Below, in pieces: positions 32,920 through 38,380 of a DNA stretch of 64,000 nt; the stretch's first letter is position 1; every line of letters starts with the position of its first letter. The position numbers and the translations under genes were made by a program. The stretch lies in the sequence record MK373782.1, one strand, 5' to 3'. This DNA is from Escherichia phage vB_EcoM_KAW3E185. Below the pieces are notes generated by a model. That model saw only the letters and a list, made by a program, of their open reading frames with translations. It made no database searches and was not told the DNA's origin.

Positions 32920-33148
32920 CATCTCGGTCCCATGATTTGGCCATTAATCCGGACATAAATTCTTCAATGCGCGTTTCTTTAGATGGACTTTCACTATTAG
33001 AGACCGCAAGTTTGTAATCTGCAATAGGACAGAACATATCAAGGTCCATATTAAGGTCGTCTTTGATTTTTTCTTCTGACACATCTTTATCGTATGTGTA
33101 CAGATAACTATCACATGATTCTGATTTAATGTAAATTGCTATACTCAT
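32912..33148 (-). CDS. hypothetical protein (about 78 aa)
   Basis: ATG at 33148 preceded by AGGAA inside the recurring junction cassette. Confidence 0.45.
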   Translation of the reverse strand: MSIAIYIKSESCDSYLYTYDKDVSEEKIKDDLNMDLDMFCPIADYKLAVSNSESPSKETRIEEFMSGLMAKSWDRDDE

Positions 33149-33624
33149 CTCAAATTCCTGCATTCGGTAATAAAACGTTCAACTTCATTATTCTTGGCTT
33201 TTATCTTGTCTTTATGTTCTTGTAAACTACTTTTAATAAGATTAATAATGATAGCGACAGTGCCGCCGCCAATGATGCCACCAATAATACTTACGATAGT
33301 AGATGCTAATAAGATAGCAATAATATCAACAAAACCGAAAGAACTCACCTTAGTACTAAAAAACCATACCGATGGTACAAATATAATCCATCCTGCTATC
33401 CATTGGCACTTATTGAAAAACTTTTCAAGATCAGCTTGAGTTGTTCGTATTACTTCATCGATAGGTTGATAACCGTTAATGTATCTGTTCACGATAATAC
33501 CTGCTGGCTGGTCGATTTTAAATTCTTGGCAAATACGTTTAACTAAGTAGGATGGACATCCTGTCCAATCTACTGAATAGTATGAAATACCTTTATTGCC
33601 GTCGTCTATATTATTGTTAATCAT
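33145..33624 (-). CDS. hypothetical membrane protein (159 aa)
   Basis: Two or three hydrophobic segments; C-terminus ERFITECRNLR. Confidence 0.5.
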   Translation of the reverse strand: MINNNIDDGNKGISYYSVDWTGCPSYLVKRICQEFKIDQPAGIIVNRYINGYQPIDEVIRTTQADLEKFFNKCQWIAGWIIFVPSVWFFSTKVSSFGFVDIIAILLASTIVSIIGGIIGGGTVAIIINLIKSSLQEHKDKIKAKNNEVERFITECRNLR

Positions 33625-34310
33625 TACCAGCCTTCCATAGGGAATTCCAGATAAACTTGAGCGTTGACACGAATTTCATTGGTAATCTTTTTAACTCGGT
33701 CTGTATTACGAGATACACGTCCGAACCAACGCCATCCATTACTAATTGCACGAGAACCAGTGTGCCATGTTTGCCAATCAAACTGAAGAAGAGTACGGTC
33801 TGGAGCTTCCCATTTCTCTAGTTCACCTTTTTCAATTTTTTCGAGGACTTCTTTGTGCCACTGGCGATAGATAAGTTCGCCATCAGGAATCTGACTGAAC
33901 TCTGCAGTTCCTGTTGCAAAATGAGTAGGACACACATCAGCGTTAACAAGACCAAGAATATGTTCAGAATGGTAACGAGGGTTGTCATAGTCAGGTTGTC
34001 CTGCAGTAATAAAGTGTTGACCAACTGGAATATCAGGGCGAGGAACATCGTCATGGTGGTATCCAGGGATAGCAGGATACCACCCAGGCATCAGCATATG
34101 AACCCGAGAATCAAATACAACATGTTGATTAGTCCAATCAATTGGGAGATTGGCAATAAAGCTACGAGTGATTGAGCCACCATTATCCCAAGCAAAACCC
34201 AAATCACAATTAAAGAACATTGGTTCATTTTTGATTCGGTCATTTTGTACGTTATGTGCAAAACTACCAACTGCACGAGCTTGACTATTAAAAGTTTTAG
34301 AACTATTCAT
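33624..34310 (-). CDS. hypothetical protein (228 aa)
   Basis: ATG start; His/Asp/Trp-rich. Confidence 0.5.
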   Translation of the reverse strand: MNSSKTFNSQARAVGSFAHNVQNDRIKNEPMFFNCDLGFAWDNGGSITRSFIANLPIDWTNQHVVFDSRVHMLMPGWYPAIPGYHHDDVPRPDIPVGQHFITAGQPDYDNPRYHSEHILGLVNADVCPTHFATGTAEFSQIPDGELIYRQWHKEVLEKIEKGELEKWEAPDRTLLQFDWQTWHTGSRAISNGWRWFGRVSRNTDRVKKITNEIRVNAQVYLEFPMEGW

Positions 34311-34311
34311 A

Positions 34312-34617
34312 TTATTTTCCTCGACATTCTTTAATGAAATTTTCTAGATTGGTAGATTCAATAGCTTTTTTACGAGCTTCTGCGTGTTCTTCTTCAGACA
34401 ATTTACATTTATAATTGACCCAGACGTTATGGTCGAAACTAGTCGTGGCATATAATAACAATGCTCCAACGAATAGCAAAAACGGCGATAAGAATACAAA
34501 ACCAGGAACACCATCCATACTGTAAGCCTTTTGTAATACTGCAACAGAAAGAGCTGCGTAAAAAAGTGATACAAATATTGTTAAAAGACCAATTCGGTTG
34601 GTTTCGCCTAATTTCAT
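34312..34617 (-). CDS. hypothetical membrane protein (101 aa)
   Basis: Hydrophobic N-terminal half; C-terminus NLENFIKECRGK. Confidence 0.5.
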   Translation of the reverse strand: MKLGETNRIGLLTIFVSLFYAALSVAVLQKAYSMDGVPGFVFLSPFLLFVGALLLYATTSFDHNVWVNYKCKLSEEEHAEARKKAIESTNLENFIKECRGK

Positions 34618-34636
34618 AATATTCTCCTCATGTTTT

Positions 34637-34676
34637 AATAGGACTACTATAACATAGTCCTATCAGTTTGTACACT
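34637..34676 (-). promoter_or_regulatory. early promoter with inverted repeat TAGGACTA/TAGTCCTA around the -10 (minus strand)
   Basis: TGTACA-spacer-TATAGT, then AAAAC, GAGGAGAA and ATG. Confidence 0.5.
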
Positions 34677-34876
34677 TATTTTGACATTTCTTCGATGTCA
34701 CGACGATACCCATCACGAACTTCACGAAGAGCTTCAAGGCCACACATAGGCTCGATACCAGTAATGTGAACTTGATTAATCTGATACTCTACATCTTCTA
34801 ACTGAGCGAAAACATAACGACGTTCTGCTGCACAACCAGGTTTAGCTTTACCGAAACGTTTATTCAAAGTAGTCAT
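34676..34876 (-). CDS. hypothetical protein (about 66 aa)
   Basis: ORF-track start is GTG; ATG at 34876 preceded by GGAG. Confidence 0.45.
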   Translation of the reverse strand: MTTLNKRFGKAKPGCAAERRYVFAQLEDVEYQINQVHITGIEPMCGLEALREVRDGYRRDIEEMSK

Positions 34877-34904
34877 TTTTATATCTCCATTCACTCATTT
34901 GTTT

Positions 34905-34944
34905 TGATAGGTCTATAGTATCAACAACTACAGACCTTGTAAAC
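34905..34944 (-). promoter_or_regulatory. early promoter cassette with inverted repeat AGGTCT/AGACCT (minus strand)
   Basis: GTTTAC at 34944..34939 with TATAGA/TATAGT-like -10 inside the repeat. Confidence 0.45.
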
Positions 34945-34956
34945 TGTTTTGTGAAA

Positions 34957-35913
34957 TTATTTGAAAGGTTTTACCATATGAAAGTTTTGTTTGAAACGCT
35001 TGACGTAATCGTCGTGTCCTAAGCTTTGGTACATACTTACTACTTTGCTATAATTTTCCCAAGCGAACTCACGGAACCATCCTGATGTGATTGATGTACA
35101 GACCTTTTCAAGGGCCATCATAAAACTATCACGTGGATGGATTTCAAAGTTATTAGGAATCTGAGAACGTTCTAACGCTAGTACACATGATTCTTCGTAT
35201 ACGCCGGCCAATTTGACCATTTCTGGTAATGATTCGAACTTCTCGCGTGAGGTCATGACTTCAGAACCATCTTTCATATAAAATGTATACGCTGGACGGT
35301 CTGTTAGTGCAATGGCTTCGTGAATAGTATCATGATCGTATGTGTAGATGTCATCTTTAAAGAATGCGCTTTTAGAAGTGTCAAGAACCGGGTGAGCATA
35401 ATTCAAAGTTTCTTTCTGGCGTTTCAGCATAATTTCAGTAAGTTCATCGTTCAGTGTAACACCTTTACCACGAAGATACTGAATATGGTTCATAGTCTTT
35501 AAAAAGAATGGATTATTTTTCTTGAAACGATGAGACATCTTAATTGCAAGACATATCTCAGGAGTTGCCCAGTAAAACCCGTTCAAACGGTCTTTAGTCA
35601 AATTTTTCTTGGCGTATTTTAAAAGGTCATAAGAAGACGTGAAATCTTCAGGAGTGAGTTCACCGACTAATTCACGGACATTAGTGATTGCCGGAACAAT
35701 ATATGCTTCAAAATGAGTTTCGCGTCCATTATGGAAGCATTTGAAAACTTGGACATCAGGGTTATCTTGGTGAACATATACACCCATCATTTGATTTTTG
35801 AATGCATTCCAAGAACCTTGGTCCGCAATAAAGTCCCAATCACTATTTTTAATAGCGCTAGAATCAATAAGACCGTGATAGTGAAGTGCACGAGAACCAA
35901 TAACTAACATCAT
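34957..35913 (-). CDS. hypothetical protein (318 aa)
   Basis: ATG start; N-terminal IGSRALHYHG...SDWDF loosely resembles a GS...DxD nucleotidyltransferase motif (weak). Confidence 0.55.
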   Translation of the reverse strand: MMLVIGSRALHYHGLIDSSAIKNSDWDFIADQGSWNAFKNQMMGVYVHQDNPDVQVFKCFHNGRETHFEAYIVPAITNVRELVGELTPEDFTSSYDLLKYAKKNLTKDRLNGFYWATPEICLAIKMSHRFKKNNPFFLKTMNHIQYLRGKGVTLNDELTEIMLKRQKETLNYAHPVLDTSKSAFFKDDIYTYDHDTIHEAIALTDRPAYTFYMKDGSEVMTSREKFESLPEMVKLAGVYEESCVLALERSQIPNNFEIHPRDSFMMALEKVCTSITSGWFREFAWENYSKVVSMYQSLGHDDYVKRFKQNFHMVKPFK

Positions 35914-35941
35914 AATATTTTCCTCGGATTAATTCATTAAC

Positions 35942-36193
35942 TTAAATTTCACGACATGCGATATTATATTCATCCCAGAGGTCATCATGTGAAGCCTCTA
36001 CCAATGGAACGATTGTACCGTTTATGTCTTCATTATAAGGGCAAATTGTACAGTGCGCATCTTCGAATCGGATGCCTTTGTGTTCAGATTTTTTATAACG
36101 CATATCGAATATCTTTGCAAACTTTTCACGAGTAATGGTTTTAGCAACCACTTTAGTTCCGATACTTTCGTAATAAATCATTGTGGACTCCAT
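35942..36193 (-). CDS. hypothetical protein (83 aa)
   Basis: ATG start. Confidence 0.5.
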   Translation of the reverse strand: MESTMIYYESIGTKVVAKTITREKFAKIFDMRYKKSEHKGIRFEDAHCTICPYNEDINGTIVPLVEASHDDLWDEYNIACREI

Positions 36194-36200
36194 TTGTTTT

Positions 36201-36239
36201 GATAGGACTACTATAACATAGCCCTATCTTGTTGTAAAC
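36201..36239 (-). promoter_or_regulatory. early promoter with inverted repeat GATAGGACTA/TAGCCCTATC (minus strand)
   Basis: GTTTAC-spacer-TATAGT cassette of the same family as at 24685 and 43145. Confidence 0.5.
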
Positions 36240-36243
36240 TGTT

Positions 36244-36441
36244 TTAGCAAGAATAACTAGATGATACCCAGCCTTGAACAGTGATACTATTGTGGGATAA
36301 TGAGATCGCGTCCTGGAGATTCAGACCTGCGTTATCTTCAATCCATAATGTAACTTCTTCGCGTTCTTCTGTTGCAATTTGGAACAGGTTTTCCAGAGCA
36401 GCTACTGCCGTACGTACAGCACAATCTAATTCACGAGACAT
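36244..36441 (-). CDS. hypothetical protein with conserved C-terminal tail (65 aa)
   Basis: Ends ...ITVQGWVSSSYSC; one of three tandem genes sharing the tail. Confidence 0.5.
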   Translation of the reverse strand: MSRELDCAVRTAVAALENLFQIATEEREEVTLWIEDNAGLNLQDAISLSHNSITVQGWVSSSYSC

Positions 36442-36450
36442 ATTGTTTCC

Positions 36451-36723
36451 TTAGCAAGTGTGAGAAGATGCGACCCAACCACCGGTTTCGAGGCTCAGGT
36501 TGTAGTCGTATTGGTAAACGTCAGCCCATTCAGCATAGCCGTTTTTTGCACAACGTTCAAGATCGGCTTTAAGATGTCCGGGTGAATGATAGGTTCCACC
36601 CATACCATAAGCTGGGTACAAGTTGAATGTTGTGTTTTGTTTATCAGCAATTTCTTTGGCAGCCTCAATAGCTGCATAGATTTTTGCTACAGCTTCAGCC
36701 AGTTCGGTTTGTTCTTTAGACAT
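36451..36723 (-). CDS. hypothetical protein with conserved C-terminal tail (90 aa)
   Basis: Ends ...LETGGWVASSHTC. Confidence 0.5.
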   Translation of the reverse strand: MSKEQTELAEAVAKIYAAIEAAKEIADKQNTTFNLYPAYGMGGTYHSPGHLKADLERCAKNGYAEWADVYQYDYNLSLETGGWVASSHTC

Positions 36724-36732
36724 AATGATTCC

Positions 36733-37038
36733 TTAGCACAACGCAGAAGACGAAACCCAAGCACCTTCAGTAATAACGTATCCATTACCTTCACGCTTAA
36801 CATCGCCGCCATTATTTTCAATTTCATCTTTCATCCACTGGGATACGATTTCACCCTTAGGATAATAAGTACGACCGCTACCATAATCACCTACAGAAAA
36901 TGATACGGCATATTGGTCTGCGATCTTTGTTGCTTCTTCTTCGATACGTTCAGCTTGATTCAGAAGTTTATAAATTGCATCTGAAGCGGATTTGGCATCA
37001 TTAAACTCTGGTACTTTAATTTCAATAATCTTACTCAT
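36733..37038 (-). CDS. hypothetical protein with conserved C-terminal tail (101 aa)
   Basis: Ends ...ITEGAWVSSSALC. Confidence 0.5.
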   Translation of the reverse strand: MSKIIEIKVPEFNDAKSASDAIYKLLNQAERIEEEATKIADQYAVSFSVGDYGSGRTYYPKGEIVSQWMKDEIENNGGDVKREGNGYVITEGAWVSSSALC

Positions 37039-37394
37039 TTTCTACATTCCTTAATAAAGTTTTCGATTGTTTCATTTTCACGTTTAGCTAGAAGTTCATT
37101 ATAACTAATCATTTGAGAAGCGTAAATCTTTTTATTTTTCTTGTTATGGTTTATAAAATCGTAGTAAAAATAGACTACAGTACAAAATGATGCGATGGAT
37201 GCAAAGGCTTGGGTATACCGTAAGTCCTGCCATTGGTCTGTGAATCCACCAGTGTTCCCTATAAATCCTAACACAACGCCGTCAATAAGAAATCCAACTA
37301 ATCCAAAGGCAAATCCCATGCCAATACTCATAATAAAAATTAGAATGTTCTCACCAAGAGAAGGCCATACGGTTAAGAGTTGAGGCTTTTGCAT
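37035..37394 (-). CDS. hypothetical membrane protein (119 aa)
   Basis: Glycine-rich hydrophobic N-terminal half; C-terminus IENFIKECRK. Confidence 0.5.
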   Translation of the reverse strand: MQKPQLLTVWPSLGENILIFIMSIGMGFAFGLVGFLIDGVVLGFIGNTGGFTDQWQDLRYTQAFASIASFCTVVYFYYDFINHNKKNKKIYASQMISYNELLAKRENETIENFIKECRK

Positions 37395-37768
37395 CTTATT
37401 TCCTTAACGAATTCCATAGCTTCTTCATATTCATACTTTTTAACAGCCTCGTCATATTGGGCTCTTGCTTTTGCACATTGAATTTTCCATTCACGTACTC
37501 GAGCTCTATAATGACGTCCTTGGTACCAATATCCCACCCAATTAATAGGCATTAATAAAAATGGCACAATAAACGACCCGGCTATAATAAGTAAAAACAC
37601 TGCATCAGACGATATAACTTCACTAGAATCTAAAACAGCTCCTATAATCATAAAGATTAAAAATGCTAAAGCTAAAATAGGGCCAAATAGTACTTCATTT
37701 GGGATTAATTTACGCTTGTATTCATACGCCCAGGGCTTACTTGGTATGTATAGGGTTGGCTTTGACAT
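37373..37768 (-). CDS. hypothetical membrane protein (about 131 aa)
   Basis: ATG at 37768 within the junction cassette; two hydrophobic segments. Confidence 0.5.
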   Translation of the reverse strand: MSKPTLYIPSKPWAYEYKRKLIPNEVLFGPILALAFLIFMIIGAVLDSSEVISSDAVFLLIIAGSFIVPFLLMPINWVGYWYQGRHYRARVREWKIQCAKARAQYDEAVKKYEYEEAMEFVKEIRCKSLNS

Positions 37769-38339
37769 ATTCTCTACATTCCATAATAAATTGCTCAAGG
37801 ATTAAATTGTTAGTGAAATTAGGACTAACAACCATGGTTTCATAAAGCGCATCAATAGCACTTAAAGCATCAACTCTTTTAAGCAAAGGCTTGCCTTCAT
37901 ACATAGTTTCAGAATCGACGATTAACGTAAAGTAATATTTTTTATTATCGACTAGAACTTCTGTATCGATATAAAACATATTAGACCTCAGAAGCTTATC
38001 TCTAAAACCATAATAATCTTCTGAACGTTCACTGATATATTCCCATTCAGTGTTTAAACAACAAACAGACCATGTAGGAGCAACGAAATCAGTGAATCTA
38101 ATATCATGGTCTGCAACTAGTTTAGCAATAGCTCCGATATCATGAATCATAATACCTGGGGCTAATAAAGATTTTCTGCTATGGCTAGCCGTTTTCTCAG
38201 TAGTCTCATAAGAAGACGACCAGTACCATTTACGTCCGGTTGCAACATATCGTAATGAATCAACTAAAGACGTAGGTGGATTTACCTTATCTCGGAACTC
38301 TTCGAACATTGAGTCAATATCATTATTTTGGTTTCGCAT
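37737..38339 (-). CDS. hypothetical protein (about 200 aa)
   Basis: ORF-track start is TTG; ATG at 38339 preceded by GGAG. Confidence 0.5.
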   Translation of the reverse strand: MRNQNNDIDSMFEEFRDKVNPPTSLVDSLRYVATGRKWYWSSSYETTEKTASHSRKSLLAPGIMIHDIGAIAKLVADHDIRFTDFVAPTWSVCCLNTEWEYISERSEDYYGFRDKLLRSNMFYIDTEVLVDNKKYYFTLIVDSETMYEGKPLLKRVDALSAIDALYETMVVSPNFTNNLILEQFIMECREYVKANPIHTK

Positions 38340-38356
38340 GTTAACTCCTTTATTAT

Positions 38357-38380
38357 CCAAAAGGAGGACCGGAGTCCTCC
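38357..38380 (-). terminator. rho-independent terminator (minus strand)
   Basis: GGAGGAC...GTCCTCC hairpin followed by UUUUGG on the minus-strand RNA. Confidence 0.45.

Follow-up and report, generated by a model that had tools for sequence, protein, structure and literature searches.

A conserved C-terminal peptide recurs on dissimilar small proteins of the nudE-e.6 cluster of T4-like phages and overlaps the ribosome-binding site of the next gene

Background

Why should several small genes of a T4-like phage end in almost the same peptide, at the very place where the next gene begins? The question is raised by a 64,000-nt stretch of Escherichia phage vB_EcoM_KAW3E185 (MK373782.1), analysed as a whole and called the window below, which comes from a T4-like (RB69-type) phage of the genus Mosigvirus. 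The genes concerned are neighbouring small genes of the nudE-e.6 accessory cluster, and the e.2-e.8 region of T4-type phages is among the least understood blocks of these genomes. A first-pass annotation, made from the sequence alone, had traced the shared ends to one and the same 25-nt junction encoding the upstream C-terminus, the Shine-Dalgarno sequence and the downstream ATG, which might allow modules to be swapped or be recognised by a translational repressor or an endoribonuclease.

Motif copies and their carriers

A six-frame scan of the 64 kb with the pattern F[IV]xE[CI]R gave five matches, all on the minus strand between 33.1 and 37.8 kb and all placed 1-11 residues ahead of the stops of the e.5, e.4, e.3, RB69ORF133c (hereafter ORF133c) and e.2 homologues. 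The first in reading direction is FIMECR (37773-37790, minus strand, as are the other copies and their genes), 11 aa ahead of the stop of the e.5 homologue (37737..38339), a soluble protein of 200 aa (phrog_2607) with the C-terminus ...LEQFIMECREYVKANPIHTK. It is followed by FVKEIR (37394-37411), 6 aa ahead of the stop of the e.4 homologue (37373..37768, its start corrected to 37768; 131 aa with two hydrophobic segments, C-terminus ...EAMEFVKEIRCKSLNS), and by FIKECR (37041-37058), 1 aa ahead of the stop of the e.3 homologue (37035..37394), a membrane protein of 119 aa ending in ...ENFIKECRK. FIKECR is found again at 34321-34338, 2 aa ahead of the stop of the ORF133c homologue (34312..34617; 101 aa, two hydrophobic segments, C-terminus ...ENFIKECRGK), and FITECR at 33157-33174, 3 aa ahead of the stop of the e.2 homologue (33145..33624), a membrane protein of 159 aa ending in ...ERFITECRNLR. 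At the nucleotide level the e.5 and e.2 copies belong to repeat family D3 (22 nt, 77-91% identity). The first-pass annotation had reported the terminal peptide at four genes; its recurrence is real, but the count was incomplete, FVKEIR in e.4 having been passed over.

All five carrier proteins are named 'hypothetical' in public sources, where a protein identical to the e.5 product is found under that name. Pfam and NCBIfam searches of the five proteins gave nothing meaningful, and literature searches with gene names and motif strings found no mention of the motif. In UniRef, e.4 bears the name 'Sulfurtransferase', an automatic label that is unsupported, and a rhodanese reading of the 'CR' residues was discarded, no rhodanese domain being present. 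A homologue search with e.5 returned only 4 clusters, which accounts for a poor AlphaFold2 model (mean pLDDT 59); Foldseek gave no meaningful fold match to this model (TM ~0.2), and a sequence search of the PDB with e.5 gave nothing.

Comparison with chance expectation

Short purine-rich Shine-Dalgarno strings are common, and AAGGAA-type repeats occur at other junctions as well (families D4 and D5), both of which would favour a mere chance likeness of AT-rich Shine-Dalgarno regions. The counts are nevertheless far from such an expectation: Markov-1 simulated 64-kb sequences contained a mean of 0.7 matches to F[IV]xE[CI]R, against 5 observed in the window, and the codon-degenerate DNA pattern of the motif gave 4 hits against 0.36 expected. 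A six-frame reading of the whole T4 genome shows only 3 instances of F[IV]..CR, which belong to the e.2 remnant, e.3 and e.5. The mean best 18-nt identity of the five initiation regions was 13.4, against 10.3 +/- 1.3 for about 95 other such regions in the window; since the five are more alike than these, the outcome that the first-pass annotation had named as its own refutation, a similarity no better than that of AT-rich Shine-Dalgarno regions at large, did not occur. In 80 related IMG/VR loci, 82 occurrences of the motif fell among the final 22 residues of plus-strand ORFs, as against 8 at internal sites and 8 on the opposite strand, a C-terminal enrichment of about 50-fold, and the motif was missing in the loci devoid of e.2-e.5 (L016 and L022). 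The motif is confined to the nudE-e.6 cluster and strongly tied to C-termini; chance is refuted by these enrichment statistics and keeps practically no probability as an explanation.

Junction layout and regulatory signals

Each of the five copies is followed by the next ATG at a distance of -1 to +10 nt, and the upstream stop overlaps or abuts the downstream start. At the e.5/e.4 junction the e.4 ATG (37766-37768) stands 4 nt past the Arg codon, within a 32-nt out-of-frame overlap; at e.4/e.3, the Shine-Dalgarno AAGGAA (37400-37405) precedes the e.3 ATG (37392-37394) in a 22-nt out-of-frame overlap. The e.3/ORF139c-like junction has AAGGAA as its Shine-Dalgarno at 37047-37052 and an ATGA stop/start overlap at 37035-37038. 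Between ORF133c and ORF132c, the Shine-Dalgarno GAGGAAAA (34315-34322) lies in and past the Arg codon, and the ATG (34308-34310) follows the stop after a 1-nt gap (TAAT-ATG, 34308-34314), while at e.2/ORF130c-like the Arg-Asn codons supply the Shine-Dalgarno AGGAA (33155-33159) and the ATGA overlap covers 33145-33148. As a result of this tight packing with stop/start overlaps, the motif and the codons that follow it double as the Shine-Dalgarno of the next gene, and the overlap with its Shine-Dalgarno and ATG described in the first-pass annotation is thus confirmed. The Shine-Dalgarno falls within the motif only if the ATG is at most 5 nt from the Arg codon, and it is mainly at this short spacing that purine-rich codons (K-E, K-G, M-E) fill the two variable motif positions. 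Protein and ribosome-binding constraints on the motif codons overlap, and are not fully separable by sequence comparison.

Translational coupling through stop/start (ATGA) overlaps is well established in phage and bacterial operons. The present junctions resemble it in having the Shine-Dalgarno inside the upstream ORF in all five cases, with ATGA at e.2 and e.3; such overlaps are, however, generic to T4-like genomes and leave the conserved F..CR peptide unexplained.

The purine-rich nature of the sites, and the presence of regB nearby in relatives, might suggest that the RegB endoribonuclease acts on the GGA-rich site or that a translational repressor such as RegA binds there. GGAG is nevertheless absent from the minus strand at 33145-33175, 34308-34340, 37035-37060, 37390-37412 and 37765-37792, and appears instead as the Shine-Dalgarno of promoter-proximal genes (e.5, ORF133c, ORF135c and the ORF at 34676-34876). 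No site was found at the five junctions with a RegA SELEX-type consensus, Rfam gave no match at the junctions, and 100-nt folds around each of them were not significant (z = -1.15 to +1.95). A regulatory target of either kind is accordingly highly improbable. Unstructured initiation regions give no reason to expect strict translational dependence. None of the five junctions coincides with a promoter-like site, the closest such sites (37126-37098 and 33135-33107) lying outside the repeat, and no terminator-like site was found at them.

Recombination at the junction repeat

In T4-type phages, short repeats called PeSLs are found at gene boundaries in hyperplastic regions; each closes with the Shine-Dalgarno and start codon of the gene that follows, and they are homologous crossover sites for the gain and loss of accessory genes (PMC2839356, PMC4122927). 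The junction repeat described here is like a PeSL in standing at gene boundaries, in having the downstream Shine-Dalgarno and start codon at its 3' end, and in being a crossover site at e.2; unlike a PeSL, it lies inside coding sequence, has neither promoter nor stem-loop, and is kept as a peptide and not as DNA. True PeSL-like elements occur elsewhere in the same region (families D1 and D15).

Of 494 Tequatrovirus records, 187 lack e.2, with the gap bounded exactly by two junction copies, and the crossover of this indel falls inside TGCAGGAAA of the junction repeat. About 150-164 Mosigvirus records were searched for hybrid junctions (e.3->ORF130c and e.3->ORF132c), and no such junction turned up. 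Other deletions in the cluster, such as AV115 and phiE142 e.3, do not use the motif. The module swapping proposed in the first-pass annotation is thus partly supported, by the e.2 breakpoint, but not as general shuffling, and recombination at the repeat, again unlike that at PeSLs, is documented for one gene in one genus only (e.2, Tequatrovirus).

Conservation of the peptide and of its coding sequence

Conservation was assessed on 27 motif copies from six T4-like genera. F was kept in 25 of 27 copies, I, V or L in all 27, C in 21 and R in 25, counts that overstate the number of independent events because the instances are phylogenetically related. Positions -3, 0, +1 and +4 were hydrophobic in 25-27 of the copies, and the flanking positions charged. 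Codon use varied (TTT 15 and TTC 10, TGT 13 and TGC 8, Arg by all six codons): the same residue was encoded by the same codon in 0.43-0.52 of pairs, about as in random draws, at positions where amino-acid identity was 72%. In ortholog alignments of e.2, e.3, e.4, e.5 and a 92-95 aa family, which are 15-48% identical, the motif residues are among the few invariant columns. At the DNA level, the 24-mer junction quoted in the first-pass annotation matched only itself at <=3 mismatches, and motif-anchored 24-mers shared 10-20 of 24 nucleotides pairwise. Among e.5 orthologues, the distance from motif to ATG ranged from 4 to 31 nt and the Shine-Dalgarno lay past the motif.

Since synonymous sites are randomised and the Shine-Dalgarno shifts relative to the motif, the recurrence is at the peptide level and not that of a shared DNA cassette. 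As judged from these alignments, the C-terminal peptide is evidently maintained by selection on the protein and not on the nucleotide sequence. The converse would be a portable nucleotide cassette (C-terminal codons, Shine-Dalgarno and ATG) selected for translational coupling, with the peptide as its by-product. Such a cassette would agree with the close spacing of all five copies to the next ATG, the ATGA overlaps at e.2 and e.3, the D3 repeats, initiation regions more alike than background, x3-x4 codons that are Shine-Dalgarno-like when the ATG is close, and the e.2 indel at the junction. It is nevertheless decidedly unlikely in view of the unique 24-mer, the synonymous sites with all six Arg codons in use, the variable spacing in e.5 orthologues, the lack of RNA structure, and the about 95 other junctions of the window and the rest of T4, which are devoid of the motif. 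The 'same 25-nt junction' as the cause of the shared ends has to be abandoned.

Relationship of the carriers

With the tails removed, BLAST sorted the carriers into many unlinked clusters, three soluble types among them, and the profile-profile likeness (hhalign) of the e.2, e.3 and e.4 families was restricted to the last 18-35 residues. The motif is carried on at least 5-6 unrelated protein bodies, membrane and soluble, and in other genera also on soluble families of 92-116 aa; when the tail profile was used in a word-indexed protein search, most of the hits were fragments of the carrier families themselves. Whole-protein homology among the carriers was not found, with the partial exception of ORF133c, which matches the C-terminal half of the e.2 family (phrog_2203, E = 1.2e-4) and is a partial paralogue of e.2, so that the genes cannot all be called unrelated as they had been.

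This match could also be taken as a sign of plain paralogy, the carriers being tandem duplicates and the tail an inherited relic without a role of its own; the weak full-length alignment of T4 e.3 with e.4, the tandem e.2 pairs in Marfavirus and in L042, and the alike N-termini of e.3 and e.4 (MQKPQL and MSKPTL) point the same way. A relic should decay, yet the motif columns are the most conserved ones at 15-35% identity, and the soluble e.5, 92-99 aa and 109-116 aa families have only the tail in common. Paralogy as the whole explanation is therefore unlikely.

Other readings of the peptide were also considered. Sites of the T4 prohead protease (gp21) have the form (L/I)-x-E, and 'FIKE|CR' was rejected as such a site: T4 e.3 reads V-I-D, the E is replaced by N, Q, G, S, H or Y in distant copies, and the carriers are early membrane or cytoplasmic proteins. 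A CaaX-like reading was rejected on the distance from Cys to stop, which varies from 2 to 16 residues.

Proposed role of the peptide

The most probable explanation, held with fair confidence, is that the recurring element is a conserved C-terminal peptide, approximately h-x-x-[F/W]-[I/V]-x-x-C-R, on dissimilar small early proteins, which doubles as a ribosome-binding site and occasional crossover site and would act as a shared docking or assembly element. The peptide, borne by e.2, e.3, e.4, e.5, ORF133c and, in other genera, the soluble 92-116 aa families, would form the end of an amphipathic helix. This helix may bring membrane and soluble carriers to one partner or to each other, a role suggested by its conservation and position; two hallmarks of short linear motifs, purifying selection at the protein level and a C-terminal position on unrelated bodies, are present. 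Its coding string of about 20 nt, repeated in the same orientation at successive gene ends, would occasionally serve as a homologous crossover site, by which a whole gene could be removed or added in frame, as with e.2 in Tequatrovirus.

Shared docking peptides are known from the hydrophobic C-terminal clamp-binding tails of T4 gp43, gp33 and gp55 and from the MIM helices of ESCRT-III. The present peptide would be analogous as a short amphipathic C-terminal motif on unrelated proteins of one system; it differs in sequence. PspB/PspC-type small membrane proteins bind PspA via a cytoplasmic amphipathic helix, and the small carriers with 1-2 transmembrane segments and a charged C-terminal helix, presumably cytoplasmic, may be compared with them. 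The product of the adjacent gene e.6 is predicted to form a long helical hairpin, for which the best Foldseek hits were Vipp1/PspA/ESCRT-III.

A bolder possibility, which we regard as doubtful, is that the F-[I/V]-x-x-C-R helix serves as a C-terminal address tag peculiar to phages. It would gather several unrelated membrane and soluble accessory proteins encoded in the nudE-e.6 cluster into a single membrane-associated complex, or bring them to a common hub, which could be e.6 or host PspA, with the conserved Cys in the helix interface. As the coding sequence of the tag holds the next ribosome-binding site and start, genes recombined in at the tag would gain both the tag and correct expression; if true, the tag would parallel PeSL shuffling in an in-frame, exon-like manner.

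No major concept is altered as the evidence stands. The junctions illustrate dual coding clearly, the same bases specifying a peptide motif and a ribosome-binding site, and indicate that in T-even genomes genes can be gained and lost in frame at conserved coding repeats as well as at intergenic PeSLs. A tail common to five or six unrelated proteins provides the first thread linking the e.2-e.8 region, and a peptide of 12-25 residues gives a concrete handle on it, as a bait or by mutation.

Genomic setting and motif carriers

The window derives from an RB69-type phage of the T4 family, a Mosigvirus, and the 5.4-kb region considered here (98.7% identity to phage NicPhage, 97.9% to phage mobillu) carries every gene on the minus strand. 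Of five proteins looked up, e.2, e.4 and e.5 have accessions from Escherichia phage vB_EcoM_KAW3E185. Gene names follow the annotations of RB69 and T4, with which the region was compared. The first-pass annotation had noticed a common C-terminal peptide in e.2 (33145-33624), the RB69ORF133c homologue (34312-34617), e.3 (37035-37394) and e.5 (37737-38339); a fifth carrier is e.4 (37373-37768, minus strand like the others), whose C-terminal end is EAMEFVKEIRCKSLNS. The five proteins are called "hypothetical" in public records. Automatic UniRef names are "Sulfurtransferase" for e.4, copied into some GenBank records, and "Dolichol-phosphate mannosyltransferase subunit 3" for ORF133c; no domain evidence was found for either.

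Two other features lie among these genes on the minus strand. The ORF132c homologue (33624-34310) encodes a very conserved protein of 228 aa, annotated in one record as a 2OG-Fe(II) oxygenase; many unrelated phage contigs hold a version at 50-95% identity, and phages of Mycobacterium and Gordonia have one at about 30%. ORF132c has the look of an accessory gene that is exchanged widely. At 36244-37038 there is a second tandem family, made up of small proteins of 65-101 aa (RB69ORF136c-139c type, phrog_899); it is also present in the related loci L011 (7691-8936), L013 (4903-5969), L014 (6763-7532) and L015 (5535-6585). These proteins end in G-x-W-V-S-S-S-x-x-C right at the stop, followed by TAAGGAAAnnnnATG, and the conserved C-terminal Cys tail with its junction repeat (repeat families D2, D5 and D6) occurs in all six genera compared.

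Recurrence of the motif

Six-frame translation of the 64-kb window gave 5 matches to F[IV]xE[CI]R, against a mean of 0.7 in simulated sequences; all fall on the minus strand, at 33.1-37.8 kb, 1-11 residues ahead of the stop of ORFs of 101-200 aa. A codon-degenerate DNA pattern gave 4 matches (0.36 expected). Over the whole T4 genome in six frames, F[IV]..CR was found three times, in e.3, e.5 and a 45-codon e.2 remnant before nudE, the T4 e.4 version being FVKESR. The initiation regions at the five junctions, where the motif codons meet the start of the next gene, share 13.4 best matches in 18 nt, versus 10.3 +/- 1.3 for about 95 others in the window, and a repeat search grouped 3 of the five junctions into a 22-nt family (D3) at 77-91% identity. 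The reported recurrence therefore stands, the motif counts and initiation-region similarity showing that AT-rich Shine-Dalgarno regions do not account for it.

Conservation at the peptide and DNA levels

The recurrence had been ascribed to one 25-nt DNA junction. The 24-mer quoted for it has no match besides itself at up to 3 mismatches, and aligned motif-anchored 24-mers have 10-20 of 24 bases in common. For codon comparisons, 27 motif copies were taken from six genera: Mosigvirus (the window), Tequatrovirus (T4 and L007), Dhakavirus (L011), Kanagawavirus (L013), Moonvirus (L014) and Marfavirus (L015). The first position is F in 25/27 copies and W in 2/27, the second I, V or L in all 27, the Cys position C in 21/27 (otherwise M, V, I or S) and the last R in 25/27 and K in 2/27. 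Phe is encoded by TTT (15) or TTC (10), Cys by TGT (13) or TGC (8), and Arg by AGA (11), CGT (5), AGG (4), CGA (3), CGG (1) or CGC (1). Where the residue was the same, the codon was also the same in 0.43 of between-genome and 0.52 of within-genome pairs, about as in random draws from pooled codon frequencies; taken over all pairs, the F, I/V, C and R positions are 72% identical in amino acid. The ortholog alignments of each family (15-48% identity) have very few invariant columns, and motif residues are among them: F113 and C117 in e.3, F120 and R125 in e.4, C155 and R156 in e.2, F184, C188 and R189 (three of six invariant columns) in e.5, and F, I, C and R in a 92-95 aa family. A single DNA junction is thus rejected as the cause, codons varying freely while residues are kept, and what recurs is the peptide rather than a cassette of DNA.

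Distribution among phages

In profile-profile comparison, similarity between the e.2, e.3 and e.4 families is confined to the last 18-35 residues. A strict motif, [FW][IVL]xxC[RK], was searched in 1.27 Mb from 80 IMG/VR loci that surround ORF132c homologues; no more than 22 residues from the C-terminus of plus-strand ORFs it occurs 82 times, in the other ~320,000 residues 8 times and on the opposite strand 8 times. Motif-bearing loci (23 of the 80) are all T4-like enterobacterial phages and hold 2-4 copies apiece, never a single one. Once the tails are stripped, the carriers split into many unlinked BLAST clusters, comprising three soluble types (e.5-like, 92-99 aa and 109-116 aa) and several membrane types. 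The motif was not found in two phages without e.2-e.5, Muldoonvirus L016 and Aeromonas phage 31.

Overlap with the downstream start

Over the 27 copies, the Arg codon ends at -1 to +31 nt from the ATG of the next gene. At distances of up to 5 nt, the best Shine-Dalgarno match begins within the two variable codons (AAG-GAA, AAA-GGA, ATG-GAG), and position 4 has a G-initial codon in 13/15 copies. With the ATG farther away, the Shine-Dalgarno sequence falls in the Cys-Arg codons or downstream of the motif, positions 3-4 are varied (T-E, I-D, D-Q, Q-M, N-L, N-S, K-H, K-Y) and G-initial codons are seen in 5/12. Given this placement, and positions 3-4 tracking the ATG distance, the "K-E" of FIKECR was plausibly shaped by the ribosome binding site, and F, I/V, C and R were not; overlaps with Shine-Dalgarno sequences and ATGA also constrain what follows the Arg (K, GK, NLR, KIK...). 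The first-pass annotation was right that one set of bases serves two purposes, the Shine-Dalgarno sequence lying in or after the motif codons, and wrong about the direction of causation, from junction to peptide. Consensus scans found promoter-like and terminator-like sites that set out two apparent polycistronic units, e.5-e.4-e.3-ORF139c... and ORF133c-ORF132c-e.2-ORF130c-nudE, within which translational coupling is possible.

RNA-level signals at the junctions

Folds of 100 nt at each junction were no more stable than shuffles (z -1.15 to +1.95), and the junctions gave no Rfam match at E <= 1 and no match to a consensus of the type bound by the translational repressor RegA, which argues against the suggested repressor target. 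Cleavage by the endoribonuclease RegB, also suggested, is not supported, GGAG being absent from all five junctions. GGAG Shine-Dalgarno sites are found instead on the minus strand at first genes behind promoters: before e.5 (38345-38348), before ORF133c (34624-34627), and at 34885-34888 and 36188-36191. RegB-cleavable sites of this type mark the first gene past each promoter or terminator, and internal overlapping junctions have AAGGAA or AGGAA without GGAG.

Gene gain, loss and recombination

In IMG/VR locus L008, nudE is directly joined to e.3, with flanks overlapping by ~21 nt and a hybrid tail made of e.3 FVIDCR and e.2 KLK, which places the crossover within TGCAGGAAA, common to the e.3 and e.2 junctions. 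A 100-nt query over this hybrid junction was fully covered in 187/494 Tequatrovirus-type records, including RB32, RB33, PP01 and PST; two motif copies are thus the exact bounds of e.2 presence or absence. In T4, e.2 is disrupted and an NNFITECRKLK remnant is kept before nudE. The truncated T4 e.2 has 102 aa (162 aa in other Tequatroviruses), the unannotated 45-codon C-terminal remnant adjoins nudE at L004 1085-1252 (T4 67484-67651), and in mobillu e.2 is broken up into two CDS (L001 2646-3138); decay of e.2 seems to be under way in several lineages. Marfavirus has tandem e.2-like pairs with junctions identical over 17-18 nt.

The proposal that the junctions allow modules to be swapped gains partial support from this e.2 indel. 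Against general shuffling, no e.3-ORF130c or e.3-ORF132c hybrid was found among ~150-164 Mosigvirus records. Some rearrangements of the cluster bypass the motif: in AV115 (L021 2501-3109) the ORF132c N-terminus is fused to nudE, and in phiE142 (L006 8378-8492) e.3 has an internal deletion with its tail retained. Phage OLB35 (P0011) has a chimeric e.3/e.4 ORF.

The nearest described phenomenon is modular shuffling mediated by promoter-early stem-loops (PeSLs) (PMC2839356). Both repeats end with a Shine-Dalgarno sequence and start and serve as crossover sites, a role documented for one gene, e.2, in the present case; unlike PeSLs, the present repeats lack a promoter and a stem-loop, are part of coding sequence and owe their conservation to the peptide. 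Genuine PeSL-like elements occur nearby (families D1 and D15), at 34620-34681, 34896-34950 and 36191-36245 on the minus strand, preceding ORF133c, a 66-aa ORF and ORF135c, respectively. In each, a stem-loop (TAGGACTA...TAGTCCTA) covers the -10 of early-promoter-like -35/-10 boxes, and a GGAG Shine-Dalgarno sequence and a start follow.

Possible role of the peptide

Hydrophobic residues occupy -3, 0, +1 and +4 in 25-27 of the 27 copies, with mostly charged neighbours, a spacing that is, from sequence, the pattern of an amphipathic helix. In a low-confidence predicted structure of e.5, a helix spanning residues 179-194 contains the motif. In membrane carriers the motif ends a lysine/glutamate-rich stretch past the last hydrophobic segment, which should be cytoplasmic by the positive-inside rule. 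Because unrelated proteins of one cluster share the tail, always with at least two carriers per genome, we infer that the simplest explanation is a common role in docking or assembly.

One lead to a candidate partner is e.6, the next gene upstream of e.5 in all motif-bearing genera examined and in 26/27 motif-positive loci tested. Its AlphaFold model (pLDDT 76) has an N-terminal helix and a long helical hairpin, 9 of its ten best Foldseek matches are Vipp1 or ESCRT-III, and a profile search gave a weak colinear match to Vipp1.

No paper mentioning the motif was found. The feature is real, previously unremarked and modest, a variant of two kinds already known, the C-terminal linear motif and the junction-repeat recombination site.
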